Positions 15,264-43,641 of a stretch of 64,000 nt of DNA are shown in pieces. Under the pieces are notes generated by a model, which was not told the DNA's origin, did no database searches, and saw only the letters and a list, made by a program, of their open reading frames with translations. The number at the start of each line of letters is the position of its first letter. Position 1 is the stretch's first letter. A program made the position numbers and the translations under genes. Origin of the DNA: Burkholderiales bacterium (lineage in GTDB: Bacteria; Pseudomonadota; Gammaproteobacteria; Burkholderiales; Casimicrobiaceae); NCBI GenBank assembly GCA_038239945.1, contig JBBSEG010000001.1, positions 9,836 through 73,835 on the forward strand, written 5' to 3'.

Positions 15264-15887
15264 ATGCACGACCTGCCGCTCCTCGTCGTCGCGCTCACCG
15301 TGTCGCTGTACTGGATCGGCGTCGGCGCAATGATCGTGCGCGTGCGGCGCCACCTGCGCACGGACGCCGGCCTGGTCCCGGAGCAGGCCCGCGAGCGGTT
15401 GATGTGGCTGGTGTGGGTGCCGCTCGTGGCGGCGTGGATCGCGCTGCCGTGGCTCGCCCAATCCCGCACGGACGCGATCCTGGCGCTGCCCGCTTTCGCG
15501 CACGACGATGCGGTGGCGCGGGCGCTGCGCGGCGCGGCCGCGCTGGTCGCAGTCGGCTGCCTGCTCGCCACGGCGCGTTGCTGGGTGCGGATGGGCGACG
15601 ATTGGCGGATGGACGTAAGCTCGCGCAGCGCGGCGCTCATCACCGACGGGCCGTTCCGGCGCATCCGGCATCCGATCTACGCGTTCAGCATCCTGCTCAT
15701 GCTGTGCTCGGCGGTCGTGCTGCCCACGGTGCCGATGCTCGCCATCGCTGCGATACACGTGCTGCTGATGAATCTCAAGGCGCGCAACGAGGAGGCCCAC
15801 CTGTCCGCGGTGCACGGCGAGGCCTATGCGCGCTACGCGGCGCGAACCGGGCGATTCGTGCCCCGGCTCACGCCGCGTGAGCATTGA
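15264..15887 (+). CDS. Isoprenylcysteine carboxyl methyltransferase/PEMT-family membrane methyltransferase
   Basis: Multiple TM helices; LITDGPFRRIRHPIY and NEEAHL...YARY motifs. Confidence 0.85.
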   Translation: MHDLPLLVVALTVSLYWIGVGAMIVRVRRHLRTDAGLVPEQARERLMWLVWVPLVAAWIALPWLAQSRTDAILALPAFAHDDAVARALRGAAALVAVGCLLATARCWVRMGDDWRMDVSSRSAALITDGPFRRIRHPIYAFSILLMLCSAVVLPTVPMLAIAAIHVLLMNLKARNEEAHLSAVHGEAYARYAARTGRFVPRLTPREH

Positions 15888-16857
15888 TCGAGCAACGCGG
15901 CTCGGCCTCGCGCTGGCGCTCGCGGCGTGCGCCGCCACGTCCGCAACTCGCGCCGCGCCCGGCGGAAGCGATACGCCGGCCGCGCGCGCCGTCGTCCTGG
16001 ACCTGCACTGCGATGCGCTGGACACCGGGCCAGCGCGCGCCGCGCTCGCGCAGGCCCCCGCCCCGCGGCTGATCCTGCTGCAGGGCGCGCTGCCGTTCGT
16101 CCCGATGGATTCGCTCGCGCGGTTCCTGGTCGACATGGGGTATCCCGAGGCGCGCATCCGCGACCCGCGCGACGGCGCGCTCACCGCCAGCGGCTATCTC
16201 GACAGCGTCAAGCTGGCCGGGATCGTCGCCTGGCACTACGAGCACGACGGCATGCCGCCGATCCTGGTGGGACACAGTCGCGGCGGCATGGTGGTCGTGC
16301 GCACGCTGCACGAGCTGGCAGGCGCGTTCCGGTCCGCGGTGGCGGTCTGGGATCCGGTGGCGGACGCGCCGCTTGATCGCACCACCATTGTCGATCCGCA
16401 CACCGGCTCCGCGCGTCCCGTCGTCGGGCTCGCCGTGCGGTACGCGGCCGCGCTCGCGACCGGCACGCTCCCGCGCATCCTCGCCGGCGAGTGGGCGATG
16501 GCCGGGCTCCTGCACGACATCCCGGACAGCGTGCGCGATTTCACTGGCTACCAGATCGACGCCGACCTGATCGCCGACGGCATCCTGCCGCGCGCGCCCT
16601 ACGTGGGGCGGTCGCGCGCCAACGTGCGCAACGTGACGCTGCCAGCTCGCACCGGGCATCTCGACGCGGTCCGGCTCGAGCACCTCGCCGCGAACCCGGA
16701 CGCGCGTGCGTACATCGAGTCCTACCGTCCGGAGACCGACGCCGCGGGGGCGCCCCCGGCGATGCGCAACGTCCTCCAGGCGGCGGACCTGTGGCACGGC
16801 ATCCGGCGCGCGTGGTGCGAGGAAGCGCAGGAGTGGGCTGCGCCGCGCGACTCATGA
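15877..16857 (+). CDS. Exported alpha/beta-hydrolase-like protein (paralog A)
   Basis: Signal peptide (RLGLALALAACAA); nucleophile elbow GHSRGG at 16270-16287; clearly paralogous to 18134-19234. Confidence 0.75.
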   Translation: MSIDRATRLGLALALAACAATSATRAAPGGSDTPAARAVVLDLHCDALDTGPARAALAQAPAPRLILLQGALPFVPMDSLARFLVDMGYPEARIRDPRDGALTASGYLDSVKLAGIVAWHYEHDGMPPILVGHSRGGMVVVRTLHELAGAFRSAVAVWDPVADAPLDRTTIVDPHTGSARPVVGLAVRYAAALATGTLPRILAGEWAMAGLLHDIPDSVRDFTGYQIDADLIADGILPRAPYVGRSRANVRNVTLPARTGHLDAVRLEHLAANPDARAYIESYRPETDAAGAPPAMRNVLQAADLWHGIRRAWCEEAQEWAAPRDS

Positions 16858-18137
16858 GAGGCGCGCTCAACCTGTTCCAGTCGAACATGCTGCGCTGGCG
16901 CGCGATGCATCCGTACAACGCCGTGCATGCGGTCGAGGTCGACCGGCACATGCCGCGCGCGGACATCGAGTCGGCCATCGCGGCCACGCTCGAGCACTGG
17001 GGCCTCACCGGCCTCGCGCTCGACGGGCGGCGCGGCCGCTACGAGTATCGCGGCGGGCCGGCGCGCAGCGTGCTCACCGTCGTCGCGGGGGCGCGCATGC
17101 TGGACACGCTCGAGGCGGAGATCGAGCGGCAGCTCAACACGCCCTTCGAAGCCGACGGCGCGCTCGACCCGTTCCGATTCTTCCTGGCGAGCGGCGCCGA
17201 CGGCACGATGCTGGGGCTCGCCTACGATCACTTCATCGCCGCGGGCGATTCCATCGTGGAGCTGCTGCAGTCGATCGTCGCGCGTTGCGCTGGCGAAGAG
17301 GGGCACGCCGCCGCGCCGCTGCTCTACCCGCCACGCCAGGGCCGGCTGTACCGCACCCACTGGCGGCGCGCGCTGGCGGGGCTCGGCCGGGTCCCGGCGC
17401 AGGTCCGCAACGCCCGGCGGACGGCGCGGCCACGCTACGGCGACGCGATGGACGGCCATAACGGCTATCGCCTGTACCTGCTGCCCGCGGACGCATCTCA
17501 GCGCCTGCCGGCCTGCGCGAAAGCATGGTCGGTGACCGTCAACGACGTGCTGCTGGCGCTCCTGCTGCTGGCGCTCGACCCGCTGGTGCCGCAGCGGCGC
17601 GGCGCGCGCCAGCGCGTCGCCATCGGCGTCGCCTCGATCATGAACCTGCGCTCGGAGTTCGGCGCGCCGGGCCGCGCGGCGTTCGGGCAATTCCTCGGCT
17701 CCTTGCGGGTCGCGCACCCGGTGCCCGACGGCATCGGTCTCGAGCGCCTGTCGCGCGACGTGCATGCCGAGACGGAACAGGTCAAGCGGGAGAAGCTCTA
17801 TCTCCAGACGCTGATCGCGATGCGTTGGGTGAAGGCCATCTGGCCGCTGCTCGACCCGGCGCAGCGCGCCGGCTTCTATGCGAAGACCTATCCCCTCCAC
17901 GCCGGACTGTCCGCGATGAACCTCAACGCGCTGTGGCGCCGGTCCGACCCGGCCAAGCCCCTGCCGGTGTACATCCGCGGCGTGCCGACGGGTCCGCTCG
18001 CGCCGCTCGTCGTGGCGTTCACCACCGTCGGCGAGCGCTTCTACGCCGGCATCTCCTATCGCACCGCCGCGTTCGATCGCGACGACGTCGACCACCTCTG
18101 GACCGGCCTCACTCGCCGGCTGACCACGCTCCCATGA
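16854..18137 (+). CDS. Standalone condensation-domain/CAT-fold acyltransferase-like protein
   Basis: ATGA overlaps at both ends; QLNTPF, FRFFL, LGLAYDHFIAAGDS (HHxxxDG-like), TVNDVLLALL, GISYRTAAF pattern. Confidence 0.7.
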   Translation: MRGALNLFQSNMLRWRAMHPYNAVHAVEVDRHMPRADIESAIAATLEHWGLTGLALDGRRGRYEYRGGPARSVLTVVAGARMLDTLEAEIERQLNTPFEADGALDPFRFFLASGADGTMLGLAYDHFIAAGDSIVELLQSIVARCAGEEGHAAAPLLYPPRQGRLYRTHWRRALAGLGRVPAQVRNARRTARPRYGDAMDGHNGYRLYLLPADASQRLPACAKAWSVTVNDVLLALLLLALDPLVPQRRGARQRVAIGVASIMNLRSEFGAPGRAAFGQFLGSLRVAHPVPDGIGLERLSRDVHAETEQVKREKLYLQTLIAMRWVKAIWPLLDPAQRAGFYAKTYPLHAGLSAMNLNALWRRSDPAKPLPVYIRGVPTGPLAPLVVAFTTVGERFYAGISYRTAAFDRDDVDHLWTGLTRRLTTLP

Positions 18138-19234
18138 AGAATCCGACCCGTCGCACCGTCCTCGTAGCCGCGCTCGCGCTCCTGCTCGCGCAGGGCTGCG
18201 CCATCGTCCCGCCCAGCCCATCGGTTCAGGACGAGCCGCGCGCCGGCGCCGTGTTCGCGCGGCTGGCGCTCGATCGCGATGCCGAGGACCGCATCCTCGC
18301 AATCGACCCGCTGCACGTGACGGAGGCGGACGTCCGCGGTCCGCTCGCGAACGCTCCGGCGCCGCGCGTAATGCTGCTGCACGGCGGGATCTATCCCGTG
18401 CACCTGATCATGATCTCGTTCGGGCATTTCCTGGTGGGCATGGGCTACCCCGAAGCCGCCATCCGCGACCCGGGCACCCGCGCATGGTCGTACAGCCCGT
18501 ACGAGCAGGGCGCGCACCTGACCGGCCTCCTCGCGTGGCAATACGAGCACGACGGCATGCGCCCGATGATGGTCGGGCACAGCCAGGGCGGCATGCAGGC
18601 GATCAAGGTGCTGCAGCAGCTCGACGGGCGCTTCGGCAACGAGATCGCGGTGGTCAATCCGTGGACCCAGGCGGCGGAAGCCCGCACCACCATCGTCGAT
18701 CCCCTCACGGGGCGCACACGACCGGTGCTCGGGTTGTCGGCCGCGTACGCGTCGGTGGTCGGCGCAGGCGGCGCGGCCTACCTGCTCCCGAACCAGTGGG
18801 ACATGATCGGCAAGCTGCGCCAGATTCCCGATACGGTCGGCGAGTTCACCGGCTTCTTCATCGCGATCGATCTCATCGCGTGGAATTTCCCCGGCATCAA
18901 CGAGCAGGAAGTGTTCCGCGGAGTCGGCACGGCGCAGGTGCGCAACCTCGAGCTGCCGGCCACCTACAGCCACGTCCTGCTGCCGGCGGTCCAGGAGCTC
19001 GCGAAGGACCCGGACACGCGGGCGCGGCTCAACGCGTATGCGCCGGGCAAGGCGGGCGAAGGCGGTCTCGAGGACGATCGGCTCACCGGCGCGCTTTGGG
19101 CCGCGGACGTCTGGTACAGCATCAAGAAGAATTGGGTGATCGAGCTTCAGCGGCTGATCCGCGCCAAGCGCGCCGCGGGCTCCGCCGGAGCCGGAGCGCC
19201 CAATAGCGTACAGGCGCCGGCGCCGCCGGTCTGA
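18134..19234 (+). CDS. Lipoprotein, alpha/beta-hydrolase-like (paralog B)
   Basis: Lipobox AQG-C after a basic/hydrophobic signal; GHSQGG with Ser at 18581; shares MGYPEAxIRDP, AWxYEHDGMxP and TTIVDPxTG with paralog A. Confidence 0.78.
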   Translation: MKNPTRRTVLVAALALLLAQGCAIVPPSPSVQDEPRAGAVFARLALDRDAEDRILAIDPLHVTEADVRGPLANAPAPRVMLLHGGIYPVHLIMISFGHFLVGMGYPEAAIRDPGTRAWSYSPYEQGAHLTGLLAWQYEHDGMRPMMVGHSQGGMQAIKVLQQLDGRFGNEIAVVNPWTQAAEARTTIVDPLTGRTRPVLGLSAAYASVVGAGGAAYLLPNQWDMIGKLRQIPDTVGEFTGFFIAIDLIAWNFPGINEQEVFRGVGTAQVRNLELPATYSHVLLPAVQELAKDPDTRARLNAYAPGKAGEGGLEDDRLTGALWAADVWYSIKKNWVIELQRLIRAKRAAGSAGAGAPNSVQAPAPPV

Positions 19235-19306
19235 AGCGAGGTGGTCGCGGCGTGCGGAACGCACGCATGAGACCGCCCGTTGGCAGGGCGCGCCCGGACC
19301 ACCGGT

Positions 19307-19312
19307 TAGAAT
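19307..19312 (+). promoter_or_regulatory. Putative internal -10 element (TAGAAT) before the FabL-like gene
   Basis: TAGAAT in the 142-bp gap; the same hexamer occurs upstream of several other genes in the window. Confidence 0.5.
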
Positions 19313-19376
19313 GGCGCTCCGACGCCGCTCACCGCCCGCGGGCCCCAGTAGAGGCCGGCCCGCGCTGCTCCCGACC

Positions 19377-20153
19377 GTGCAATCCGACGCAACGTGCAAC
19401 GACCTGCCGCTTGGCGGCAAGCTCGCGCTGGTCACCGGCGCGGCCCGCGGCATCGGTCGCGCCATCGCGATGAAGCTCGCGACGCGCGGCGCGGATGTCG
19501 TCGTCAACTACTACAACAGCGCCGACGAGGCGGAGGCGCTGTGCGGCGAGATTCGCGCGCTCGGCCGGCGCGCCCTGGCGGTGCAGGCGAGCGTCGGGAT
19601 GCCGGATAGCGTGGACGAGTTGTTCGAAGCGCTCCGGAAGGAATTCGACCGGCTCGACATCGTGGTGAGCAATGCCGCCTCCGGCGTGCTCAAGCCGACG
19701 CTCGAGATGGGTCTCAAGCATTGGCGCTGGTGCATGGAGACCAACGCGCTGGCGATCGGCCTCCTCGCGCAGCGCGCGGTGCCAATGATGCGCGACGGCG
19801 GGCGGATCATCGCGATGTCGTCGCTGGGCGCGCAGCGCGCGATGCCCAATTACGGCTTCGTCGGCGCGTCGAAGGCCGCCCTGGAGGCGCTGGTGCGCGC
19901 GCTCGCGCAGGAGCTCGGTCCGCGCGGCATCCGCGTCAATACCGTCAGCGCGGGCGTCGTGGACACCGACGCGCTCGCCTATTTCCCCAATCGCGACGAG
20001 GTGCTCGCGAACTTCGCGCAGCGCACGCCGGCCGGTCCCACGCTCACGCCGCAGGCAGTGGCCGACGCGGTGTACCTGCTCTGCCTTCCCGAGGCCGCGA
20101 TGATCAACGGCCACACGCTGGTCGTCGACGGCGGCTTCGCCATCTCCGGCTGA
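19377..20153 (+). CDS. fabL: SDR oxidoreductase, FabL-like enoyl-ACP reductase
   Basis: TGAARGIG; VVSNAASGVLKP and NYGFVGASKAALE (YxxxxxxK spacing) as in FabL. Start taken at GTG 19377, downstream of the -10. Confidence 0.72.
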   Translation: MQSDATCNDLPLGGKLALVTGAARGIGRAIAMKLATRGADVVVNYYNSADEAEALCGEIRALGRRALAVQASVGMPDSVDELFEALRKEFDRLDIVVSNAASGVLKPTLEMGLKHWRWCMETNALAIGLLAQRAVPMMRDGGRIIAMSSLGAQRAMPNYGFVGASKAALEALVRALAQELGPRGIRVNTVSAGVVDTDALAYFPNRDEVLANFAQRTPAGPTLTPQAVADAVYLLCLPEAAMINGHTLVVDGGFAISG

Positions 20154-20159
20154 CGCGCG

Positions 20160-20918
20160 ATGGACGTCGATCCTGGCCTCGCGGGCAAGACGGTGATCGT
20201 GACCGGCGGCAGCCGCGGCATCGGCCGGGCCATCGTCCTGCGCTTCGCCGCCGAAGGCTCCGACGTGACGTTCTTCTACCGCGGCAATGCCGCCGCCGCC
20301 GGCGCGGTGACCGATGCGGCCGCGGCCGCGGGGCGCGCGGTGGCCGCCGCGCAGGTGGACGTGACGGACGCGGCGGCCTGCGCCGCCGCGGTCGAGCGCG
20401 TCGCCGAGCGCACCGGCCGCGTCGACGTGCTCGTGAACAACGCCGGCGTCATCCGCGACAACCAGCTCGCCGCGATGTCCGACGAGGACGTAAGCATGGT
20501 GCTCGACACCAACGTTGGCGGCGTATTCAACATGGCGCGCGCCGTGGTGCCGCACATGATCGTGCAACGCGCCGGACGGATCGTGAACCTGAGCTCGGTC
20601 GCCGCGGAAAAGGGCGGGCGCGGCCAGACCAACTACGCGGCGAGCAAGGGCGCGATCAACGCGTTCACGCGCTCGCTCGCGGTCGAGCTCGCGCCGCGGC
20701 GCATCACCGTCAACGCAGTGGCGCCGGGCGTGATCGAGACGGAGATGTCGCAGGACGTGCGCGACATGGCCGGCGACGAAGTGAAGAACCGGATCCTGCT
20801 GAAGCGCTACGGCAAGCCGGAAGAGGTCGCGTACGCCGTGTGGTTCCTGGCGTCCGACTACGCGAGCTACGTGACGGGACAGGTGTTCCACGTCGACGGC
20901 GGCTTCAAGATGGCATGA
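20160..20918 (+). CDS. fabG: 3-oxoacyl-ACP reductase
   Basis: TGGSRGIG, NNAG, NLSS, NYAASKG, VTGQVFHVDGG. Confidence 0.88.
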   Translation: MDVDPGLAGKTVIVTGGSRGIGRAIVLRFAAEGSDVTFFYRGNAAAAGAVTDAAAAAGRAVAAAQVDVTDAAACAAAVERVAERTGRVDVLVNNAGVIRDNQLAAMSDEDVSMVLDTNVGGVFNMARAVVPHMIVQRAGRIVNLSSVAAEKGGRGQTNYAASKGAINAFTRSLAVELAPRRITVNAVAPGVIETEMSQDVRDMAGDEVKNRILLKRYGKPEEVAYAVWFLASDYASYVTGQVFHVDGGFKMA

Positions 20919-20933
20919 AGGGAGAACCGCAAC

Positions 20934-21362
20934 ATGGCTGAGCAACCGATCACCCAGGCGCAGATCGACGCCGTATATCCGAAGGTCGCCGAGACGATGG
21001 CCGACGCGCTCGGCGCCGACCTCGAGGACATCAAGCCCAAGGTGTCGCTCATCGAGGGCCTCGATGCCGAGTCCATCGATTTCCTCGACATGGTGTTTCG
21101 CCTCGAGCGCGCGTTCAAGATCAAGATCCCGCGCGGCAAGATCGTCGAGAACGCGCGCGGCGACCTGCCCGAGGAGGAGTTCGAGCAGAAGGGCATCGTC
21201 ACCGAGAGGGGCCTCGTGCAGCTGCGCGAGTATTTGTCCGAGGTGCCGGCCGAGCGCTTCAAGACCCCGCTGAAGGCGGCCGAAATCCCGCGCCTCTTCA
21301 CACCCGAGACGTTCTGCAAGCTGGTGATCCGCGCGCAGCGCGAGGCGCCGGCGCCGGCGTGA
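20934..21362 (+). CDS. Oversized acyl carrier protein (142 aa)
   Basis: Acidic; LDAESIDFLDMVFRLERAFKIKI with Ppant Ser at 21072; GGAG RBS. Confidence 0.85.
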   Translation: MAEQPITQAQIDAVYPKVAETMADALGADLEDIKPKVSLIEGLDAESIDFLDMVFRLERAFKIKIPRGKIVENARGDLPEEEFEQKGIVTERGLVQLREYLSEVPAERFKTPLKAAEIPRLFTPETFCKLVIRAQREAPAPA

Positions 21363-21387
21363 AGACCGGTCCAGTCGTGAGCTGACC

Positions 21388-22230
21388 GTGCCTTCGGCCG
21401 ATCACTTCGCCGCGTACTCGTTCGTCGACCGCATCGACCGGTTCGAGCCGGGGCGCGTAGCCACCGCGCGCTTCGCCGTGCCGCGCGAGGTGGCGCGCTT
21501 TCCGGCGTGCCTGGTCGCCGAGGCGGTCGGCCAGCTCGCGGCGTGGGTGTCGATGGACCGCATCGACTTCCGCGGCCGGCCCGTCGCTGCGCTCGCGAGC
21601 CAGACGCGCATCCTGGGCGATGCGCGTCCAGGCGACGTGCTCGAGCTCGCCGTGACCGTGGACCAGTGCGACGACGAGGCGGTCGCGTACGGTGGGTCCG
21701 CCCATGCGCACGGCGCGCCGCTGGTCGAGCTCGTCGATTGCCTCGGACCGATGCTCCCGGTCGCCGAGTTCGACGCGCCAGAGGAGCTGCGCGCGCGGCT
21801 TGCCGTGCTGCGCGGCCCGGGCGCCGTGCCGGGACGGTTTCGCGGCGTCCCGTCGCCGGCCGTAACGATGCTCGAACGGGTCGCAGGCGTGTCCCTGCGC
21901 GCGCGCCTCGACGTGCCGGCCAGCGCGGCGTTCTTCAACGATCATTTCCCGCGCCGGCCGGTGTTCCCGGCGACGCTGCTGCTCGACACGCAGATCGCGC
22001 ACACGCTCCTGCTCGCCCGCGACGCGGCGTGGGCCGCCGGACGCACGGTGACGGCCGCCAAGGTCACCCACGTGAAGATGCGCTCGTTCATCCACCCCGG
22101 CCAGGCGCTCGATCTCGCCCTCGACGTGGCCGTGCCGGTGGACGGCGTTGCGAAAGCGACGATGCAGGCGCGTTGCGACGCTCGCGTGGTCGCCGGTGCG
22201 CGCCTCGAGATGGAGGTGACCGATGCGTGA
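21388..22230 (+). CDS. Tandem hotdog-fold (FabZ/FabA-like) dehydratase
   Basis: Domain 1 FVDRI...FPACLVAEAVGQ; domain 2 FFNDHFPRRPVFPATLLLD. Confidence 0.8.
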   Translation: MPSADHFAAYSFVDRIDRFEPGRVATARFAVPREVARFPACLVAEAVGQLAAWVSMDRIDFRGRPVAALASQTRILGDARPGDVLELAVTVDQCDDEAVAYGGSAHAHGAPLVELVDCLGPMLPVAEFDAPEELRARLAVLRGPGAVPGRFRGVPSPAVTMLERVAGVSLRARLDVPASAAFFNDHFPRRPVFPATLLLDTQIAHTLLLARDAAWAAGRTVTAAKVTHVKMRSFIHPGQALDLALDVAVPVDGVAKATMQARCDARVVAGARLEMEVTDA

Positions 22231-23515
22231 GCGCCGCCGGGTCGCGATCACGGGCGTGGGGGTGGTCACGCCGGTCGGCAACGACGCGCCGGCCACGTGG
22301 CGGGCGGTGCTCGATGGGCAGAGCGGCGCCGCGCCCATCTCGCTGTTCGACGCGAGCGGCTTCTCCACGCGCATCGCCGCGGAGGTGAAGGGCTTCGACT
22401 CGCGCGTGCTCACCGCCGAGCGCAAGCTCGTGAAGTTCGCCAACCGGTCGCATCGCTTCGCGCTCGCCGCGGCCGAGCAGGCGATGGCCGACGCGGGCAT
22501 CGCGCCCACCCCCGGCGACGCCGAGCGCTGGGGTTGCGCGGTCGGCACGGGGATGATGGGGGTCGACTTCGACGATCTCACGGCGGTGCACCGGCATTCG
22601 GCGCGCGGCGGCGAGCTCGACCCGCAGCGCATGGTCGACGACCCGGCCGCCACCGATCCGCTGGTTTTCTGCCGCAGCCAGGCGACGGCGGGCGTGGCTC
22701 TGCTCACGCGCCGGTTCGGCATCCGCGGATATTCCACGTCGGTGCACACCGCGTGCGCGTCGGGAGGCCAGGCCATCGGCACCGCCCTGAAGCTGATCCG
22801 GCGCGGCGCGGTCGACCGCGCGCTCGCGGGCGGCTTCGACTCGATGATCAGTCCGGCCGGGCTCGCCGGGTTCTGCCTGCTCTCGGCGGTGTCGGCCGAC
22901 AACGACGACCCGACGCATGCGAGCCGCCCGTTCGACGCGAATCGCAACGGCTTCGTGCTCGGCGAGGGCGCAGGCTTCCTGGTGCTCGAGGAATGGCAGG
23001 CGGCGAAGGCGCGCGGCGCGCGCGTCTACGCGGAGCTGGCCGGCGACGGCAATTCGCTGTCGTCGTATCGCATCACCGACTCGCCCCCCAACGGCGACGG
23101 TCCGATCCAGTCGATGCTGGCCGCCCTCCGCGACGCCGGCGCGTCGATCGGCGACGTCGACTACATCAACGCGCACGGCACGTCCACGCCGATGAACGAC
23201 CGCAGCGAAAGCGCCGCGATCCACGCGGTGTTCGGCGCGCGCACCGCCGATGTGAGCGTCAGCTCCACCAAGAGCACGATGGGTCACCTGATCGCCGCCG
23301 CGGGCGCCGTCGAGGTGGTGATCTGCGCCATGGCGATCCGCCACGGCGAGCTGCCGGTCAACGCGAACTTCGTCGATCGCGATCCGGACTGCGATCTCAA
23401 CCTGGTGCTCGCGCCGCGCCGGCAGGCCGTCGGCATGACGCTCTCCAATTCCTTTGGCTTCGGCGGCTCGAACAGCTGCGTGGCGCTGCGGCATCCGGAC
23501 GCCGTGGCAGCGTGA
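22223..23515 (+). CDS. fabF: Beta-ketoacyl-ACP synthase II (intact Cys-His-His)
   Basis: TACASG (Cys 22754), YINAHGTST, KSTMGHLIAAAG, GFVLGEGAG, SNSFGFGG. Confidence 0.92.
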   Translation: MRERRRVAITGVGVVTPVGNDAPATWRAVLDGQSGAAPISLFDASGFSTRIAAEVKGFDSRVLTAERKLVKFANRSHRFALAAAEQAMADAGIAPTPGDAERWGCAVGTGMMGVDFDDLTAVHRHSARGGELDPQRMVDDPAATDPLVFCRSQATAGVALLTRRFGIRGYSTSVHTACASGGQAIGTALKLIRRGAVDRALAGGFDSMISPAGLAGFCLLSAVSADNDDPTHASRPFDANRNGFVLGEGAGFLVLEEWQAAKARGARVYAELAGDGNSLSSYRITDSPPNGDGPIQSMLAALRDAGASIGDVDYINAHGTSTPMNDRSESAAIHAVFGARTADVSVSSTKSTMGHLIAAAGAVEVVICAMAIRHGELPVNANFVDRDPDCDLNLVLAPRRQAVGMTLSNSFGFGGSNSCVALRHPDAVAA

Positions 23516-24819: not shown

Positions 24820-24832
24820 CGAGCTCCCGGCC

Positions 24833-25750: not shown

Positions 25751-25787
25751 CCGGGCTTCAGCGAAGCGCCAGAGCGACGCCGCCCGG

Positions 25788-31100: not shown

Positions 31101-33044
31101 CCGGGCGAAGCGGGCTTCGCCGGCGTGGCCGCGCAGTTCGGGGCAGCCGCGCACTTACCCGCGCCCGAGCCCGTGCGCGCCGCGGTGCCTCGCGTCGAGC
31201 CGGCAACCCCGTCCGCGCTCGTGCACCCGCATCCCGGGCTCGCCGGCGTCAGCATCAGCGTCGTCATTCCGGCCTACGGCCGTGCGGAGATGACCCGCGC
31301 TTGCGTGGACGCGCTGTGCGCGTCGGGCAGTCCGGTGACCACGGAGATCATCGTCGTCGACGACGGCTCGCCCGAGCCGATCGCCCCCGCACTCGCCGGC
31401 GTCGCCATCCTGCGCGTGGTACGGCAGGAGACGAACCAGGGGTTCATCGCAGCCTGCAACCGCGGCGCGCAGGAGGCGCAAGGCACGCATCTGCTCTTCC
31501 TCAACAACGACACTCTGGCCGCCGCCGGGCTGCTGGCCGCGCTCCTCGACGTCTTCCTGCGGGCGCCCGATGCCGGCGTGGTCGGCGCCAAGCTGGTGTT
31601 TCCCGATGGGCGCCTGCAGGAGGCCGGCTGCTACGTGCGGCCGGACGGCAGCGCGGAAATGATCGGGCTGTGGGACCAAGCGGACCGGCCCGCCTATGCG
31701 TTCACGCGCGAGGTGGGTTACGTGTCGGGTGCGTGCCTGATGATCGAGCGCGCGTGCTTCGCCGCGCTGGGCGGCTTCGACCCGGCCTATGCGCCGGCCT
31801 ATTGCGAGGACTCCGACCTCTGCTACCGGGTACGCGCCCTCGGCAAGCGCGTGTATTTCGCCCCCGGCGCGATCGTCACCCACGCGCTCAGCGTATCGAT
31901 GCGCGACGCGTCCATCGACAAGGCCGCCCTCGTGGCCGCGAACCAGGCGAAGTTCGTCGTGCGCTGGGGCGCAACCCTGGCCGCTGACGACGCGGTGCGC
32001 GCGATCGCCATGTACCTTCCGCAATTCCACCCGATTCCGGAGAACGACCAGTGGTGGGGGCCCGGATTCACCGAGTGGACCAACGTCGCGCGCGCGGTGC
32101 CGTCGTTTCCCGGCCATCGACAGCCGAACCTGCCGGCCGACCTCGGCTTCTACGATCTGCGGCTTGCACAGACGCGCGAAGCGCAGGCCGCGCTGGCGCG
32201 CGCCGCAGGCCTATACGGCTTCTGCTACTACTACTACTGGTTCGGCGGCAAGCGGCTGCTCGAGCAGCCCCTCGTCGCAATGCTCGAAAGCGGGCGCCCC
32301 ACGCTGCCGTTCTGCGTATGCTGGGCCAACGAGAACTGGACCCGCCGCTGGGACGGGCTTGCCTCGGAGATCCTGATTGCCCAGCAGCACTCGCCCGACG
32401 ACGACCGCGCGTTTCTCGCGAGCCTCCTGCCGGCGATGCGTGACTCGCGCTACATCCGCGTGCACGGCGCGCCGCTGCTGCTGGTCTATCGTCCGTCGCT
32501 GCTGCCGGACGCCCGTGCCACGGCGGCACGCTGGCGCGCCATGGCGCGCGACGCTGGGCTGCGCGACCTGTATCTTTGCACCGTGCAAAGCTTCTATCAC
32601 CTCGACAGCCGCGGCCCGCAGGCATACGGCTTCGACGCGGCGGTGGAGTTTCCGCCGCACGGCCTCGCCGTTGCGGCGGCGGAGCGTCCAGCGGGCGCCG
32701 GCGCGCGCGGCTTCGACGGCTCGTATTACGACTACGAGCGCACCGTGGCGAGTTTCGAGGGCCGGCCGGCGCCGGACTATCCGCTGTACCGTGCCGCCAT
32801 GCCACGCTGGGACAACACGCCGCGCCGCGGCCGCTCGGCGACCGTGTTCGCCGGCGGCTCGCCGGGCGCCTACGAGGCGTGGCTGCGCAGCGCGGTGCGC
32901 TACACCCGCCGCATGTACTTCGGCGACGAGCGCCTCGTGTTCGTCAACGCCTGGAACGAATGGGGCGAAGGCAATTTCCTCGAGCCCGACCAGCACTTCG
33001 GCCACGCGTACCTGGATGCGACGCGCCGCGCGCTGGCCTCATGA
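28110..33044 (+). CDS. Multidomain glycan protein: class I SAM methyltransferase + long coiled coil + GT2 + WbsX/GH99-like domain
   Basis: GTGA overlap; VLEVGAGCG; Ala/Glu/Arg-rich helical run ~29840-30860; ISVVIPAY, VVDDGS, LFLNND; AIAMYLPQFHPIPENDQWWGPGFTEW...VNAWNEWGEG. Confidence 0.88.
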   Translation: MSPRAHDGSPAGYRRDEATGVLVAEAAPAFEYSDAPGFEAELLQRLRAARDLSSGSAELFALADRWPLEAHLSPLRANLLRPFRIHAAHRVLEVGAGCGGLTRSLGETGAQVTALEGALPRAACAAERCRDLANVQVVCDELTRFPAGAGYDVVTLVGVLEYARLFVPGDDPVARMLQYARALLAPGGTLLLAIENQLGLKYFNGCAEDHLGTRFAGVTDLYGSGTAVTFGRSELGARLHATGFVHLDWYYPFPDYKLPSVVLADRALREPGFVAADLLFGEASRDYTGAPERSFDEAAAWPVLARNGLLGDFANSLLVAATQDGAASTLDAGDWLAYKFAVLRRARYATATRFFVSNTGLQVEKRRLDATLAATDAADGAAPPRDATPLASSEDGLPALRHRVSVAPYVTGRLLAREVADTIGRGGTPGDIAGALQPWVAFLREHVLPGDRPEDEPSLPGRLLDCLPFNVVRDRDGTLHAIDLEFAVESRIPLGWVILRGVVHTLGKCFGQRSIRDVAFDTLLHGVLPHLDDAAEALRARHRAREDALIREVLLPWPGRRAVGILEERLQLPVAATQSAYERLAEATEQIDAARAARDEMPRLRGLLESTAAEAARLLAETATRERAADLAERARSAAEHAVEVARTAAEQAAGRIDALRAHVGELELAHEQQARATARARDELAAEQDAHRRSATGAAELRIQLAATRGELARTQADAERACAERDAARASLVRMDAELADARTVFAQAQADATAAGQAHRDAVAAAAHRAAVLEESNRAATAAAAGRHAALATLLHEREARLAALGSAAAAAAVSFTRERDALHDSLAAVQADLHDQRVAGDAAAADHARTHAAAAVALARLEQEAAEQSARAGEAEVRARAAEGQAVMAESTARAAGGRADALALELAALRRRALVRLVAWLPSPGAPALRTGSGASGAGVIFRALRRSYAALPVPSGLKLAAKDAFYRRAGRWFRDAQHYQVWLAHEEARRRPGEAGFAGVAAQFGAAAHLPAPEPVRAAVPRVEPATPSALVHPHPGLAGVSISVVIPAYGRAEMTRACVDALCASGSPVTTEIIVVDDGSPEPIAPALAGVAILRVVRQETNQGFIAACNRGAQEAQGTHLLFLNNDTLAAAGLLAALLDVFLRAPDAGVVGAKLVFPDGRLQEAGCYVRPDGSAEMIGLWDQADRPAYAFTREVGYVSGACLMIERACFAALGGFDPAYAPAYCEDSDLCYRVRALGKRVYFAPGAIVTHALSVSMRDASIDKAALVAANQAKFVVRWGATLAADDAVRAIAMYLPQFHPIPENDQWWGPGFTEWTNVARAVPSFPGHRQPNLPADLGFYDLRLAQTREAQAALARAAGLYGFCYYYYWFGGKRLLEQPLVAMLESGRPTLPFCVCWANENWTRRWDGLASEILIAQQHSPDDDRAFLASLLPAMRDSRYIRVHGAPLLLVYRPSLLPDARATAARWRAMARDAGLRDLYLCTVQSFYHLDSRGPQAYGFDAAVEFPPHGLAVAAAERPAGAGARGFDGSYYDYERTVASFEGRPAPDYPLYRAAMPRWDNTPRRGRSATVFAGGSPGAYEAWLRSAVRYTRRMYFGDERLVFVNAWNEWGEGNFLEPDQHFGHAYLDATRRALAS

Positions 33045-34483
33045 CGCGTTCGCTGCGGAGCGGCGCGGTGACGGCGCGGCATGCCCACGCGGCCGGTGGC
33101 ATCGGCATCGCGGCCACGCTCGTCGCGAAGGTGCGCGCACTCGGGTGGCGCGAAGCGGCGCGGCGCGCGCGCACCATCGTGGCGATCGAGGGTTTCCGCG
33201 GCCTTCGCATGCGGGCCGCCGCGTGGCGTCGGCGCATCCTGGACGACCACCCGCCCGCCATCTCGCCCGCGGCGTTCGTGACGTCGAGTGCAGCCGCGAG
33301 CGAAAGCGGCGACGCGCAGGCTGCTGGTCCGGTGGGCGCGGCGCCCGTCACCGGCATCAACCTGGTGGGGCATCCTTTCGGCGTGCTCGGCATGGGCGAG
33401 CATGTCCGCAAATCGGCCCACGCGTTCGCGGCTGCCGGCGTGCCGTTCACGCTGATCGACACCTTCGACCAGCCCGGCGCGCTCGCGGCGAAGATCCGCG
33501 AATTTCCATTCCTCGACCGGCTTTCGCGCGTGCCGGCTTTTCCCGTGTCGCTGTTCCACCTCAACGCCGACGAAATGCCGCTCGCCTCCGCGCATCTGGG
33601 TGCGGCGTTCTTCGCGGGACACTACAACATCGGCTACTGGGCGTGGGAGCTCGCGAAGTTTCCCGACGCATGGTGCAGCGCGTTCGAATATTTCGACGAG
33701 ATATGGGCGCCGTCGCGCTTCATCCAGCAGGCGCTGGCCGAAAAATCCCCGGTGCCCGTGCGCTACATGCCGCTCGCCGTGGGATTCCCGGAGCACGCGC
33801 CGCTCGACCGGGCCCATTTCAGGCTGCCGCGGGATCGTTTTCTCTTTCTGTTCTACTTCGACTTCACCTCCTACGTCGCGCGCAAAAATCCGCAGGCCAC
33901 GCTGGCGGCCTTCGAGCAGGCCTTCCCCCCCGGATCGACCGTCGCCGCGACGCTCGTCATCAAGCTCAACGGGATGCACCTGCGACCCGACGACTACGCG
34001 CGCTTTTGCGCCGGCCTGAAGCCCCGCGGCGATTCGGTCATCCTGCTCGAGGAAGTGATGACCGATCGCGAGGTCCGCAGCCTCGTCCAATGCTGCGACG
34101 CCTTCGTGTCGCTGCACCGGTCCGAGGGTTTCGGCCGCGGCCTCGCGGAGGCCATGTACTACGGCAAGCCGGTGATCGGCACCGGCTACTCGGGTAATCT
34201 GGATTACATGAATCCCGACAACGCGTGCCTCGTCGACCACGTGCTCGTGCCCGTGCGCGAAGGTGAGTATCCGCACGCGGAGGGACAGGTGTGGGCCGAC
34301 CCCGACGTGGCCCAGGCGGCGGCGTACATGCGTGCGCTCGCAGGCGACGCGCGGCTGTGCGGGCGGCTCGGTGAGCGAGCGCGCGCATCGATGCGCGAGC
34401 ACCACGGCTTCGCCGCCATCGGACGCCGCTATCGCGCGCGCCTTGCGGCGATCGGCTTGGCCGGGACGCGCGACGCGCCGTGA
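33041..34483 (+). CDS. GT4-family glycosyltransferase
   Basis: ATGA overlap; RKNP, FVSLHRSEGFGRGLAEAMYYGKPVIGT (ExFGxxxxE motif). Confidence 0.88.
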   Translation: MTRSLRSGAVTARHAHAAGGIGIAATLVAKVRALGWREAARRARTIVAIEGFRGLRMRAAAWRRRILDDHPPAISPAAFVTSSAAASESGDAQAAGPVGAAPVTGINLVGHPFGVLGMGEHVRKSAHAFAAAGVPFTLIDTFDQPGALAAKIREFPFLDRLSRVPAFPVSLFHLNADEMPLASAHLGAAFFAGHYNIGYWAWELAKFPDAWCSAFEYFDEIWAPSRFIQQALAEKSPVPVRYMPLAVGFPEHAPLDRAHFRLPRDRFLFLFYFDFTSYVARKNPQATLAAFEQAFPPGSTVAATLVIKLNGMHLRPDDYARFCAGLKPRGDSVILLEEVMTDREVRSLVQCCDAFVSLHRSEGFGRGLAEAMYYGKPVIGTGYSGNLDYMNPDNACLVDHVLVPVREGEYPHAEGQVWADPDVAQAAAYMRALAGDARLCGRLGERARASMREHHGFAAIGRRYRARLAAIGLAGTRDAP

Positions 34484-35256
34484 GCTCCGATCACTACCTG
34501 CCTGCGGTCGACTGGGTGGCCCCGGGAATCCGCAAGGGCCGCAATCCCCGCGAAGGCTACATGCGCGGCTGGGGATTGCAGTTCCGCGGCCTCGCCGACG
34601 CCATCCGCGCCGACCCGCTGTATCGCGAGGCGCTCGCGCTGGCCGAGGGGCGCAGCGTGATGGCCGAAGCCCATCGCCAGAACCTCTACCTGATCCTGCG
34701 CTTCTTCCTGCCCAAGATCCCGTTCGGACACGTGGTGGAATTCGGCGCCTACCGCGGCGGCAATGCGATGTTCATGGCCCACGTGCTCGCGCGCACGCTG
34801 CCGGGCGTGCGGGTCTACGCATTCGATTCGTTTGCGGGCATGCCGGCCACCGATCCGACCGTCGACGCCCATTCGGCCGGCGACTTCAGTGACGCCAGCG
34901 TGGACGAGATCCGCACGGCGTGCAGCCGGCACGGCATCGCCAACCTCGAGCTGGTCAGCGGCTGGTTCGAGGACAGCGCGGCGCCCGCGCTGCGGCGCAT
35001 CGGACCCGTCGCGCTCGCGCACATCGACTCGGACATCCACTCCGCCGTGACGACGGCCTACGACGCGGCGCGCCCGCACATGGTCGAGGGCGGCTACCTG
35101 GTGTTCGACGACGCCACGGTCTCGAGCTGCCTCGGCGCCACCGAGGCGGTCGAGGCGCTGTGCGTGCGCCGCGACGGGCTGCACGCAGAGCAGATCTTCC
35201 CGCAGTTCGTGTTCCGCAGCGGGCTTCACGACACCGTCGCGGACGCAAGCGCATGA
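34480..35256 (+). CDS. TylF/MycF-family sugar O-methyltransferase
   Basis: VVEFGAYRGGN, YAFDSFAGMP, GWFEDS, LAHIDSD, GYLVFDD. Confidence 0.82.
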   Translation: MSSDHYLPAVDWVAPGIRKGRNPREGYMRGWGLQFRGLADAIRADPLYREALALAEGRSVMAEAHRQNLYLILRFFLPKIPFGHVVEFGAYRGGNAMFMAHVLARTLPGVRVYAFDSFAGMPATDPTVDAHSAGDFSDASVDEIRTACSRHGIANLELVSGWFEDSAAPALRRIGPVALAHIDSDIHSAVTTAYDAARPHMVEGGYLVFDDATVSSCLGATEAVEALCVRRDGLHAEQIFPQFVFRSGLHDTVADASA

Positions 35257-35987
35257 AAGAGTGCAGCAAGGCGCTCGCGCGACGGCTGGCCGACGCGTCG
35301 TTCGCGACGCGCTACTTCGTAGGCCCGGGCCTGGACGTGGGGGGCCGGCCGGACCCCCTGTCGCTCTATCTCGAGCTGTTTCCGCGCGCCACGTCGATCC
35401 GCACGTGGGACCGCGAGGATGGCGACGCACAACACCTCGCGGGCGTCGCGGACGATTCGGTCGGCTTCGTGCATGCGAGCCATTGCCTCGAGCACCTCGT
35501 CGATCCGCAGGAGGGCCTCGCCAACTGGCTGCGCGTCACCGCCCCGGGCGGCCACCTGATCGTCACCGTTCCCGACGAGGACCTCTACGAGCAGGGCGTG
35601 TTCCCCAGCGTCCGCAACGCCGATCACCGCCATACATTCACGATCTGGAAGCCCCGCTCGTGGAGCGAGAGCTCGATCAACCTGGTCGAGCTCGTCACGC
35701 GGCTCGGACCCGCCGCGCAGGTGTTGAAGCTCGAGTTGCTCGAGTCGACCTATCGCTATGCGCTGCCGGCCTACGACCAGACGCTGACGCCCGTCGCCGA
35801 ATGCGGCATCGAGCTCGTGATCCGCAAGCGGCCGGCCCGGGAGATCGTCGCGGGCGGCCGGTTGCCTGCCGCCGGCCAGCCATTGCGCGAGATGCGCATC
35901 CATCTCAACCAGTATCGGCAGGACCGCGCACGCGCACGCTCCGGCAACGAAACGGAGCCGCCGTTTCGCGACGACGGGGAGCTCTGA
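35253..35987 (+). CDS. Class I SAM-dependent methyltransferase
   Basis: ATGA overlap; GLDVGG, GDAQHL, FVHASHCLEH, APGGHLIVTVP. Confidence 0.82.
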   Translation: MKECSKALARRLADASFATRYFVGPGLDVGGRPDPLSLYLELFPRATSIRTWDREDGDAQHLAGVADDSVGFVHASHCLEHLVDPQEGLANWLRVTAPGGHLIVTVPDEDLYEQGVFPSVRNADHRHTFTIWKPRSWSESSINLVELVTRLGPAAQVLKLELLESTYRYALPAYDQTLTPVAECGIELVIRKRPAREIVAGGRLPAAGQPLREMRIHLNQYRQDRARARSGNETEPPFRDDGEL

Positions 35988-36027
35988 TGCGGCGCCGTAG
36001 CGAACACCCCCGCCTCCGCCGCGCAGC

Positions 36028-37059
36028 ATGAAGGTGCGCGCCCGCGCCCCGCTGCGCCTGGGGCTCGCCGGGGGGGGCACCGACGTCTCGCCCTATTGCG
36101 ACGAGCATGGCGGCCTCGTGCTGAACGCGGCCATCGGCCTGCATGCCTATGCCACGCTGGCGCCTGCCCACGACGGGCGGCTGCGATTCGCGGCGGTCGA
36201 CCGGGGCGAGCGCGAGGACGTGGCGCTGGCCGCCTCGCTCGACGCCGCAGGTCCGCTGTGCCTTCACCGCGGCGTCTACAACCGGGTCGTGCGGGATTTC
36301 CGCAACGGCGAGCCGCTGGCAATCGAGCTCTCCACGCATTCCGATGCGCCCGCAGGATCGGGACTCGGCGCATCGTCGACGCTCGTCGTCGCCATGGTCA
36401 AGGCGTTCGTCGAGCTGCTCGCACTGCCGCTCGGCGAGTACGACATCGCGCGACTGGCCTACGAGATCGAGCGCAATGACCTGCAACTGGCCGGCGGCCG
36501 CCAGGATCAATACGCCGCGGCGTTCGGCGGCGTCAATTTCATGGAGTTTCACGCCGGCGAGCGCGTGGTCGTCAACCCGCTGCGCGTCAAGAACTGGATC
36601 CTATCGGAGCTGGAGGCGTCCCTAGCGCTCTACTACACCGGCGTATCGCGCGACTCGGCGCGAATCATCGCCGCGCAGAAGTCGCTGATGGCCGCCCACG
36701 ATCCGACCCAGCGCGCCGCCTTGGACGCGCTCAAGGACGAGGCGCTCGCGATGAAGGAGCATATCTTGCGCGGGGACATTCGGGCGCTGGCCGCCTCCAT
36801 GCGCGCCGGCTGGGACGCGAAGAAGCGCGTCGCGCCCGACGTGTCCAGCGCGCCGATCGAGCAGGCGGTGGACACGGCGCTCGCGCACGGGGCCTACGCC
36901 GCCAAGGCGTCGGGCGCGGGCGGCGGTGGGTTCATCATGCTGCTCGCCGATCCGCTGCGCATGGTGGACTTGCGCCGCGCGCTGGACGGGCTCGGCATGG
37001 GACGCACACAGGCGTGCCACTTCACGCCTCACGGCACGCAGGCGTGGCGCATCGAGTGA
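36028..37059 (+). CDS. hddA: D-glycero-alpha-D-manno-heptose-7-phosphate kinase (GHMP family)
   Basis: RAPLRLGLAGGGTDV, PAGSGLGASS, GGRQDQYAAAFGG, KASGAGGGGF. Confidence 0.88.
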   Translation: MKVRARAPLRLGLAGGGTDVSPYCDEHGGLVLNAAIGLHAYATLAPAHDGRLRFAAVDRGEREDVALAASLDAAGPLCLHRGVYNRVVRDFRNGEPLAIELSTHSDAPAGSGLGASSTLVVAMVKAFVELLALPLGEYDIARLAYEIERNDLQLAGGRQDQYAAAFGGVNFMEFHAGERVVVNPLRVKNWILSELEASLALYYTGVSRDSARIIAAQKSLMAAHDPTQRAALDALKDEALAMKEHILRGDIRALAASMRAGWDAKKRVAPDVSSAPIEQAVDTALAHGAYAAKASGAGGGGFIMLLADPLRMVDLRRALDGLGMGRTQACHFTPHGTQAWRIE

Positions 37060-37793
37060 GCGGCGCGTCGACGCTGGCGTGCGAAGCGATCGTGCTGGCG
37101 GGCGGCCTCGGCACCCGCCTGTCTTCCGTGTCAGGCGGCCGGCCCAAGGCGCTCGTCGAGGTGGGCGGCCGCGCCTTCGTCGACTGGCAGCTCGACTACC
37201 TGGCCGCGCAGGGCGTGCGCCGCGTGGTGCTGGCGACCGGCCACCGAGGCGACGCCATCGTCGCGCACGTCGGCACGCACCGCGGGCCGCTCTCGATCGA
37301 TTGCGTGCGCGAGGCCGCGCCGCTGGGGACGGGCGGCGCCACGCGGCGCGCACTGCAAGAGATTGCCGGCCGCGGCGCGTTCGTGCTCAACGGCGACACG
37401 TTCGCGGCGGCGGACCTGCGCGAACTCGAGGGACGCGACCGGGAGCACGCCGTGATGACCGTCGCGTGGGTCGACGATGCCGCAGCGTTCGGCTCGATCG
37501 GCCTCGAAGACGGGCATGTCGCGACCTTCGCGGAGAAATCCGCCGTCGTCGCGGGGTGGGTGAACGCCGGCGTCTACTGGCTGCGGCGCGATGTGTTCGA
37601 CGCAGCCGCGTTGCCGGAGGCGTTCTCGCTCGAGCGCGATTTCCTGGCTCCGAATGTGGCAGCGCTGCGCCCCCGCGCCGTCCGGCTCGCGGCGCCCTTC
37701 GTCGACATCGGCACCCCGGAGGCGCTCGCGGCTGCGCAAACAGCCGTGCCCGCGATGGTGGCGCGGGCAACGCTCAGCGGCGGCTGCGCATGA
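37056..37793 (+). CDS. hddC: Heptose-1-phosphate guanylyltransferase-like nucleotidyltransferase
   Basis: LAGGLGTRL, PKAL, EAAPLGTGGA, LNGDTF, FVDIGTPE; coupled to hddA by GTGA. Confidence 0.82.
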   Translation: MSGASTLACEAIVLAGGLGTRLSSVSGGRPKALVEVGGRAFVDWQLDYLAAQGVRRVVLATGHRGDAIVAHVGTHRGPLSIDCVREAAPLGTGGATRRALQEIAGRGAFVLNGDTFAAADLRELEGRDREHAVMTVAWVDDAAAFGSIGLEDGHVATFAEKSAVVAGWVNAGVYWLRRDVFDAAALPEAFSLERDFLAPNVAALRPRAVRLAAPFVDIGTPEALAAAQTAVPAMVARATLSGGCA

Positions 37794-43573: not shown

Positions 43574-43641
43574 TTCCCTGGCATGGCGCGGTCTGCGTCA
43601 CCGAGCAGCGCCGGCTGAACCGGCACGCCCGCAACCCGCGC

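Follow-up and report, generated by a model that had tools for sequence, protein, structure and literature searches.

The 64,000-nucleotide window analysed here belongs to a Burkholderiales bacterium of the family Casimicrobiaceae, and carries between positions 15264 and 37793 a continuous run of genes for acyl-chain synthesis followed by genes for an exported glycan. The original prediction read this run as one lipoglycan system. Our comparative analysis does not bear this out, since the lipid module occurs without the glycan genes in every informative relative. It is instead likely that we are looking at two independent envelope cassettes, set head to tail by a rearrangement: a lipid cassette (15264-25750), probably for late acylation of lipid A, and a glycan locus (25788-39702). 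Because the GC content of the window is 71%, genes were called by GC content at third codon positions (GC3), and were then annotated with Pfam and NCBIfam scans. These calls give 19 consecutive genes between 15264 and 37793, all on the + strand, with 4-bp overlaps at seven boundaries (16854, 18134, 23512, 28110, 33041, 34480, and 35253). The second ketosynthase gene (KS2) is separated from lpxO by 13 bp, and lpxO from wzm by 37 bp. The gene content, strand, overlaps, and gaps originally described for this region are thus confirmed.

The lipid half is a conserved unit. In relatives it comprises 12 genes, 11 of which are present in the window, where lpxO is the last. A profile scan of species genomes detected its condensation-fold (C-fold) protein in 241, and the window proteins were mapped onto the best 80 of these loci. 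The order of the cassette is conserved throughout these 80 loci, one of its two hydrolase paralogues being sometimes absent, but never both. Three homologue neighbourhoods show the same succession of ICMT-like methyltransferase, hydrolase, C-fold protein, hydrolase, two short-chain dehydrogenases/reductases, acyl carrier protein (ACP), dehydratase, and two ketosynthases (KS). KS2 is followed there by a phosphopantetheinyl transferase (PPTase)/LpxL gene and then usually by an LpxO-type gene. When the flanking open reading frames (ORFs) were clustered, nothing beyond the cassette itself proved to be conserved, neither a transporter nor a glycosyltransferase nor any other neighbour. The cassette is present in all 37 same-genus genomes and in 93 of the 151 genomes in the family sample, which corresponds to every sampled member of five of the 12 genera. 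It was found in none of the other seven genera sampled, in none of 24 other families of the order, and in none of 400 genomes sampled across the phylum. The C-fold protein has more than 1000 homologues in metagenomes, and the named ones, from Casimicrobiaceae or Betaproteobacteria metagenome-assembled genomes (MAGs), are annotated as “hypothetical.” We found no description of the cassette in the literature on the family, on dedicated-ACP lipid A systems, or on LmtA/ICMT. The cassette represents an envelope-lipid pathway that is specific to this lineage and has not been described, in agreement with the earlier view that it matches no described pathway.

In contrast, its junction with the glycan locus is not conserved. 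Only 22 of the 80 loci extend at least 1.5 kb beyond the cassette; 20 kb from each of 20 long-contig genomes, covering all five genera, were therefore added. In none of approximately 45 informative loci is the cassette followed by wzm/wzt or any other glycan gene of the window. The best 80 loci contain no match to the Wzm, giant, GT1, TylF, second methyltransferase, HddA, or HddC proteins of the window, save one fragment with 24% identity. In the 20 further genomes, glycan genes are found in 0/20 within ~10 kb downstream of the cassette, while lpxO is found in 10/20. The closest relative (loci L002, L003, and L093), whose cassette proteins are 59-91% identical to those of the window, shares the upstream neighbourhood as well, with genes for an aminotransferase, a solute-binding protein, a BrkB-family protein, a cupin, and a thiolase. 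After lpxO, however, this relative has genes for a chromate transporter, a Na/H exchanger, and a gamma-glutamyltranspeptidase, homologues of which are scattered over other contigs in the genome of the window. Synteny with this relative thus stops precisely where lpxO meets wzm. Homologues of the WbsX or GT2 parts of the giant glycan protein are present in same-genus genomes, on contigs other than that of the cassette.

The glycan half also occurs on its own. In genome G054, which belongs to another family and has a GC content of 55%, homologues were found for Wzm (40% identity), for Wzt with its C-terminal domain (43%), for the giant protein (41-49%), and for the GT1-family glycosyltransferase (44%). 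The core order is the same, and among full-length relatives of the giant, the G054 protein ranks best; its end domains are the same. There is no lipid gene near this glycan core. Co-occurrence of the two halves across genomes was the test proposed together with the lipoglycan hypothesis, and when it is run each half is found without the other. Since each half occurs without the other, and since synteny breaks at the junction, the two are separately heritable. GC content is uniform across the junction (0.70-0.75), and a horizontally acquired island recognizable by its composition was rejected on this basis.

Some features of the junction nevertheless weigh against separation. The lpxO and wzm genes are co-directional and 37 bp apart, with no terminator predicted between them, so read-through cotranscription is likely. 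A functional link between the two halves in this one genome is conceivable. Cotranscription, even if real, would not establish a shared product. Moreover, both the junction and the gene deletion described below are known from a single assembly, a MAG that is 98% complete. The shared strand, the short gap, and the lack of a predicted terminator, together with the lack of an initiating transferase or ligase gene in the window, speak for a single lipoglycan, in which the C-fold enzyme would place the ACP-bound acyl chain on a methylated heptoglycan exported by Wzm/Wzt, either as an anchor or as a decoration. Such a machine, if real, would make a new class of surface polymer, but comparison with relatives speaks against it. 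None of the ~45 informative relatives shows this adjacency, a genome of another family has the glycan core with no lipid genes alongside, and synteny breaks precisely where the two halves meet. In addition, WecA-like and WaaL-like genes elsewhere in the genome offer an ordinary route for the glycan, and the C-fold family is equally conserved in the cassettes of relatives, none of which adjoins this glycan locus. We therefore regard a single lipoglycan as highly improbable.

The window differs from all relatives in one further respect, which the original prediction did not anticipate: its lipid half lacks a gene common to all other cassettes. In locus L002, a 1269-bp gene lies between the KS2 and lpxO orthologues. 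In the window, KS2 ends at 24819 and lpxO starts at 24833, leaving a 13-bp junction (24820-24832) that marks the site of a clean deletion of this ~1.27-kb gene. The missing gene encodes an AcpS-type PPTase that is fused to, or followed by, a Lip_A_acyltrans (LpxL-family) domain. This PPTase::LpxL gene is present in 46/46 loci of relatives and in 20/20 further genomes, but neither tblastn nor a Pfam search found it in the whole genome of the window. The only two Lip_A_acyltrans genes of this genome are a housekeeping LpxL on contig C23 and a weak aryl polyene (APE)-type acyltransferase on contig C45. The other 11 cassette ORFs are intact, with GC3 values of 0.88-0.95, and the window, L002, and L007 are about equidistant from each other for every cassette protein. 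Because of this equidistance, there is no clear sign, as judged from the sequences, that the remaining genes are decaying.

Two explanations that take the deletion as their starting point were weighed. The first is that loss of PPTase::LpxL inactivated the pathway, and that the other genes have simply not yet degraded. This would fit a precise one-gene deletion of a component universal in relatives, with no replacement in the genome. It fits less well with 11 intact ORFs showing coding-type GC3, with the lack of clear acceleration relative to L002 and L007, and with the prospect that a housekeeping AcpS could activate the ACP while the C-fold enzyme could off-load it. A dying remnant thus seems unlikely to us. 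The second is the lipoglycan again, in a version where the C-fold route would have replaced the lost outlet in this genome. Since the outlet gene is gone while the other 11 are intact and have diverged no further than those of sister species, the acyl-ACP would need another outlet. If so, this genome would make a lipoglycan that its relatives do not make, as a lipid A acylation cassette and an O-polysaccharide locus would have fused recently in evolution. The same conservation of the C-fold family in cassettes that do not adjoin this glycan locus counts against this version, which is just as improbable as the simpler one. Whatever its consequence, the natural loss of the transferase gene makes the genome of the window a ready-made comparison case.

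As for the individual components, the cassette begins with a gene (15264-15887) for a membrane methyltransferase of the ICMT/PEMT superfamily (PF04191, 37 bits; PF04140, 27 bits), which keeps the same place in the cassettes of relatives. The protein shows a weak NCBIfam match to LmtA, a lipid A 1-phosphate methyltransferase. A thiolase gene (13826-15202) lies directly upstream, as it does in 16 of 58 loci examined by ORF clustering; it may supply the cassette or may be a mere conserved neighbour. Next come two paralogous Ser-hydrolase-like proteins (43% identity) flanking the C-fold protein. Hydrolase A (15877-16857, with a start at 15826 or 15877) is exported, while hydrolase B (18134-19234) is a lipoprotein with an AQGC lipobox and conserved Ser150, Asp246, and His280 residues. 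Neither has a family match in Pfam or NCBIfam, which adds to the novelty of the cassette, although a GHSxGG motif, an Asp, and a His are invariant in both. The AlphaFold2 (AF2) model of hydrolase B (predicted local distance difference test [pLDDT] score of 89) displays a divergent α/β hydrolase, the nearest structures being minimal lipases, with a weak match.

The free-standing C-fold protein (16854-18137, 427 aa) was also modeled by AF2 (pLDDT 89). According to this model, it has the two-lobed, chloramphenicol acetyltransferase-like fold of condensation enzymes. Foldseek matches it to the condensation domains of nonribosomal peptide synthetases (AmbE, AzeD, SgcC5, and CDA-C1) with an E value of 4e-19 and TM scores of 0.64-0.79. 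In Pfam it remains below the cut-offs for Condensation (18 bits versus 30.6) and PapA_C (18 bits versus 30), and it is also weakly similar to the wax ester synthase/diacylglycerol acyltransferase (WS/DGAT) family. Instead of the canonical HHxxxDG, the protein has an invariant Y-D-H-F-x-A-x-G-D motif, in which the His is retained and the Asp occupies a shifted position. Profiles of the C-fold protein and of the hydrolases retrieved nothing significant when the PDB was searched by sequence, and fold comparison alone was informative for these proteins.

The following genes make up a dedicated type II acyl-chain assembly line, whose existence, already proposed originally, is real. The enoyl-ACP reductase FabL (19311-20153) matches NF005975 with 344 bits (cut-off 328). 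The first ATG of its long ORF is overlapped by a TAGAAT sequence (19306-19311), which had been pointed out before and is indeed present. L002 and 7/9 same-genus loci also have this hexamer upstream of their reductase genes, in DNA with a GC content of ~70%, and it is for this reason probably a real −10 element of an internal promoter. Since the proteins of relatives are 251 aa long, translation of fabL probably starts at GTG 19377. The 3-oxoacyl-ACP reductase FabG (20160-20918) matches NF009466 with 246 bits (cut-off 222). The dedicated ACP (20934-21362, 142 aa) is recognized by PF00550 and carries the motif L(D/G/N)AESIDFLD, in which the Ser is identical in 46/46 family members. It is followed by a double-hotdog dehydratase of the FabA/FabZ/ApeI type (21388-22230, 280 aa), with PF07977 on its C-terminal half. 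Orthologues of this protein are matched by PF22818 (ApeI-like).

The two ketosynthase genes originally described are both there, with a correction concerning the second. KS1 (22223-23515) is a canonical FabF-type enzyme with a Cys-His-His triad (NF005589, 414 bits; cut-off 387), and its TACAS/AHGT/GHLI motifs are kept in 37/37 aligned relatives. KS2 (23512-24819) is a ketosynthase-like partner in which the alignment places a Ser at the position of the catalytic Cys, as in chain-length factors (CLFs) or decarboxylases. All 37 aligned relatives have H-S-(V/C)-G at this place and retain the Lys as well as both His, and the protein is below cut-off on every NCBIfam KS model. KS1 and KS2 may thus form a KS/CLF-type pair, in which KS2 may serve as the priming decarboxylase. 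The last gene (24833-25750) encodes an LpxO-type Fe/2-oxoglutarate-dependent acyl 2-hydroxylase, 89% identical to its L002 orthologue. Its match to the LpxO equivalog NF033391 spans positions 2-296 of 297 and reaches 437.9 bits (cut-off 500), versus 109 bits for OlsC.

What does the cassette make? Our confidence, a little better than even, goes to a lipid A late-acylation and remodelling cassette. Lipid A is favoured because of the LpxL-domain score, the LpxO equivalog match, the presence of LmtA in the ICMT family, and the parallel with a five-function rhizobial system. In relatives, the acyltransferase associated with the PPTase gives the top Lip_A_acyltrans score in the genome (131-151 bits), above housekeeping LpxL (107-128 bits) and APE-type acyltransferases (39-62 bits). 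Besides this gene, a single LpxL is found in several cassette genomes, and a tandem pair in a cassette-free genus. The sequence comparisons and models establish the gene content, the conservation of the cassette, the independence of the two halves of the run, the deletion, and the protein folds; from the family assignments we infer the acceptor, the type of chain, and the roles of the C-fold, hydrolase, and methyltransferase proteins. In relatives, the AcpS-type PPTase domain would activate the dedicated ACP, on which KS1, KS2 (with its Ser), FabG, the double-hotdog dehydratase, and FabL would build a saturated acyl chain. This chain is predicted to be fully reduced because FabG, the dehydratase, and FabL are all present. 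The fused LpxL-family domain would then move it to lipid A as a late (secondary) acyl chain, which LpxO would 2-hydroxylate. More speculatively, the C-fold enzyme could add a further ester or amide, the ICMT-like enzyme could methylate a phosphate or carboxylate, and the exported lipase-like paralogues could trim or transfer acyl groups in the periplasm. In the genome of the window, the transfer step would be gone with the deletion of PPTase::LpxL. As regards function, the fallback option of the original prediction, that the block modifies lipid A, is consequently the best supported, while anchoring or acylation of the glycan is not.

The cassette can best be compared with the VLCFA (very-long-chain fatty acid) lipid A cluster of rhizobia and Bradyrhizobium, which consists of acpXL, fabZXL, fabF2XL, fabF1XL, and lpxXL (PMC5613085). 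Like this cluster, it includes a dedicated ACP, two FabF-type KS, a dehydratase and, in relatives only, an LpxL-type transferase, and both are insulated from housekeeping fatty acid synthesis. Unlike in the VLCFA cluster, KS2 has a Cys-to-Ser change, FabG and FabL are encoded within the cassette, and the ACP is 142 aa long. The acyltransferase of relatives is fused to an AcpS-type PPTase, and is absent from the window. The cassette also adds a C-fold enzyme, one or two exported lipase-like proteins, an ICMT-like methyltransferase, and LpxO. Clusters of the AcpXL/LpxXL type furnish lipid A with a very-long-chain acyl group bearing an (omega-1)-hydroxy function. By analogy, it would be a betaproteobacterial functional counterpart of the rhizobial AcpXL/LpxXL system.

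Several points weigh against lipid A. The acceptor is deduced from family membership only, and LpxL-family acyltransferases also serve other glycolipids, as illustrated by the phosphatidylinositol mannoside (PIM) acyltransferase and by APE clusters. In addition, the APE-like cluster of contig C45 has a second LpxO paralogue (59% identity) as its last gene, and because of this an LpxO-type enzyme is no proof of lipid A. Furthermore, no cassette protein reaches the cut-off of the rhizobial-type NCBIfam models: the AcpXL-like model NF005079 gives 40 bits against the ACP (cut-off 83), and PRK06501 and PRK06519, which we take to be rhizobial-type KS models, give 323 bits (cut-off 629) and 55 bits (cut-off 320), respectively, against the cassette KSs.

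These points leave room for a different product of an equally independent cassette, namely a separate lipid that is placed in the outer membrane or secreted, for example an acylated sugar, a wax ester-like compound, or an acyloxyacyl lipid. The mycobacterial PapA3/PapA5 and Chp1/Chp2 enzymes, with their logic of acyl-trehalose synthesis, are the basis for this comparison; acyl transfer by the C-fold enzyme in the cytoplasm would precede a transesterification carried out by the exported Ser hydrolases. As in the PapA/Chp systems, a cytoplasmic condensation-fold acyltransferase is paired with exported enzymes of Ser-hydrolase fold; in the window, the C-fold gene lies between those of the two exported lipase-like paralogues, both with an intact triad, and is coupled to them translationally by ATGA overlaps. 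The occurrence of an LpxL-family enzyme and an LpxO paralogue in the C45 cluster also points in this direction, as does the persistence of the cassette here without its LpxL gene. However, no sequence relation to PapA/Chp is detectable beyond the fold, and the cassette has neither an MmpL protein nor a polyketide synthase. The cassette has no conserved association with an exporter, a flippase, or a glycosyltransferase, which means that a separate lipid would have to ride existing envelope machinery. Finally, the fused acyltransferase has the best Lip_A_acyltrans score in those genomes, and the hydroxylase is close to the LpxO equivalog. We consider a separate lipid to be a doubtful alternative, albeit one to be taken seriously, and prefer late acylation of lipid A.

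An APE cluster was considered and rejected. The cassette resembles APE clusters in having a KS with an inactive-Cys KS partner, an ApeI-like dehydratase, FabG and, in relatives, an LpxL-family acyltransferase. It differs from them by its enoyl reductase and by the lack of an aryl AMP-ligase, a thioesterase, a LolA-like protein, and an MMPL exporter. With this reductase, a saturated chain would be made, unlike in APE. The hallmark APE genes, absent from the cassette, are found in the separate C45 cluster.

This cluster (C45:21429-33015, − strand), which lies outside the window in the same genome, is a typical APE-like cluster. It encodes an ACP, an AMP-ligase/hotdog protein, a Lip_A_acyltrans-type acyltransferase, a LolA-like protein, an MMPL-type exporter, a KS and a KS-like partner, a dehydratase, a ketoreductase, and a GT2 glycosyltransferase. 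Its last gene, joined by a 4-bp overlap, is the LpxO paralogue, so that LpxO-type hydroxylases close two different lipid clusters in this genome. In a different genome (locus L106, G067:C1, genus g32), genes for a second LpxL-family protein (28% identity) and a FabF-like KS (37%) are found ~8-10 kb downstream of the cassette.

The second half of the run is best read, from its gene content, as an ordinary ABC transporter-dependent O-polysaccharide-type locus (25788-39702). It starts with genes for a Wzm permease (25788-26651; PF01061, 81 bits) and a Wzt ATPase (26641-28113; PF00005, 88 bits). The Wzt protein ends with a glycan-cap-binding domain (PF14524) at residues 330-469, which scores 96.8 bits (cut-off 30.4). 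They are followed by a gene for a giant protein of 1644 aa (28110-33044), in which Pfam delineates a methyltransferase, a conserved middle domain, an A/E/R-rich helical region, a GT2 domain, and a WbsX-type glycosyltransferase (GT). The methyltransferase domain (Methyltransf_12/23/25, residues 85-245), which would terminate the glycan chain, lies in the same polypeptide as the GT2 and WbsX domains. A PDB sequence search with residues 1-597 returned generic methyltransferases only, and WbdD was not among the matches. Genes for a GT1-family glycosyltransferase, a TylF-type O-methyltransferase, and a class I methyltransferase, all assigned by Pfam, occupy 33041-35987. The + strand run ends with genes for an HddA-like heptose-7-phosphate kinase and an HddC-like heptose-1-phosphate guanylyltransferase (36028-37793). 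Their best NCBIfam matches are the HddA and HddC equivalogs, although below cut-off (370 versus 600 bits and 142 versus 300 bits, respectively). Judging from these families, heptose is a likely sugar of the glycan. A convergent gene on the − strand (37774-39702) encodes a protein with two GT2 domains (PF00535 twice), which is 34% identical to the GT2 domain of the giant and probably belongs to the locus. GmhA-like genes are found elsewhere in the genome, at C5:53618 (209.1 bits versus a cut-off of 209.45) and on contig C12.

The closest parallels are the wsaE and WbdD systems. In the wzm-wzt-wsaE arrangement for the S-layer glycan of Geobacillus stearothermophilus, as in Escherichia coli O8/O9a, the chain receives its cap from a methyltransferase, and Wzt presumably binds this cap (PMC2943079). 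The glycan locus of the window shares with these systems overlapping wzm and wzt genes, directly after which comes a gene for a protein that joins a methyltransferase at its N terminus to two GT domains, a C-terminal carbohydrate-binding domain in Wzt, and nucleotide-sugar genes at the distal end. Unlike in these systems, the giant contains an A/E/R-rich helical insert of ~400 residues and a WbsX-type second GT, the distal genes are HddA/HddC-like rather than rml/man, and there are two further methyltransferases. By the same logic, the giant would methylate the cap, and the C-terminal domain of Wzt would read it. The chain would presumably be started by a WecA-like enzyme and ligated by a WaaL-like enzyme encoded elsewhere.

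ABC-dependent O-polysaccharide loci normally lack WecA and WaaL genes of their own. In agreement with the original prediction, the Pfam families of WecA/WbaP, WaaL, and KpsD/E have no match among the called genes of the window. However, the genome has a WecA-like gene (Glycos_transf_4) at C38:27047 adjoining a WaaL-like gene (Wzy_C) at C38:30046, and another WaaL-like Wzy_C gene at C4:117181. We infer that the glycan locus uses these enzymes. Because initiator and ligase genes sit elsewhere in the genome, the glycan needs no special lipid anchor.

The O antigen of E. coli O52 is exported by an ABC transporter. Its gene cluster contains hddA and hddC (PMC7685785). As in O52 and in the wcb locus of Burkholderia pseudomallei, both of which make glycans from GDP-D-glycero-alpha-D-manno-heptose, an HddA/HddC-like pair is found in a polysaccharide locus with wzm/wzt. 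The locus of the window differs in lacking gmhA/gmhB, dmhA/dmhB, KpsC/S/D/E, and a WcbR-type synthase, and in having HddA-like and HddC-like proteins below the equivalog cut-offs. A group 2 or wcb-kps capsule was rejected, as no KpsC, KpsS, KpsD, or KpsE family is found among the called genes of the window.

Two more Wzm/Wzt loci are present in the genome (C9:100885-103000 and C30:45373-49300). The C9 Wzt shares 43% identity with that of the window in its C-terminal domain, and a gene for a GT2 related to the giant comes after the C30 locus. Immediately beyond the glycan locus of the window, a gene on the − strand (39793-43767) encodes an FG-GAP/DUF5122 β-propeller repeat protein of at least 1072 aa (1324 aa in the ORF list), and lies in the only lower-GC stretch of the window (0.66-0.67).

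What these findings bring out is a 12-gene, dedicated-ACP lipid system that has become fixed in five genera of uncultured soil bacteria, all from a single Burkholderiales family. Its parts have not been seen in this combination before: a KS/KS(Ser) pair, a PPTase-LpxL fusion, a free-standing C-fold protein, exported lipase-like paralogues without a Pfam family, an ICMT-like enzyme, and LpxO. If it acts on lipid A, it would mean that the AcpXL/LpxXL problem has been solved a second time, by independent evolution, and an unusual lipid A chemistry would be predicted in an abundant soil lineage.

Elsewhere in the window, a gene for a VIT/VWA-domain protein (778 aa) is followed by one for a sortase-domain protein (181 aa) at 4416-7448, which resembles a proteobacterial sortase-substrate pair. 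Three TPM-domain (phosphatase-like) proteins, two of which are adjacent, are encoded at 50634-52303 and 63004-63999.

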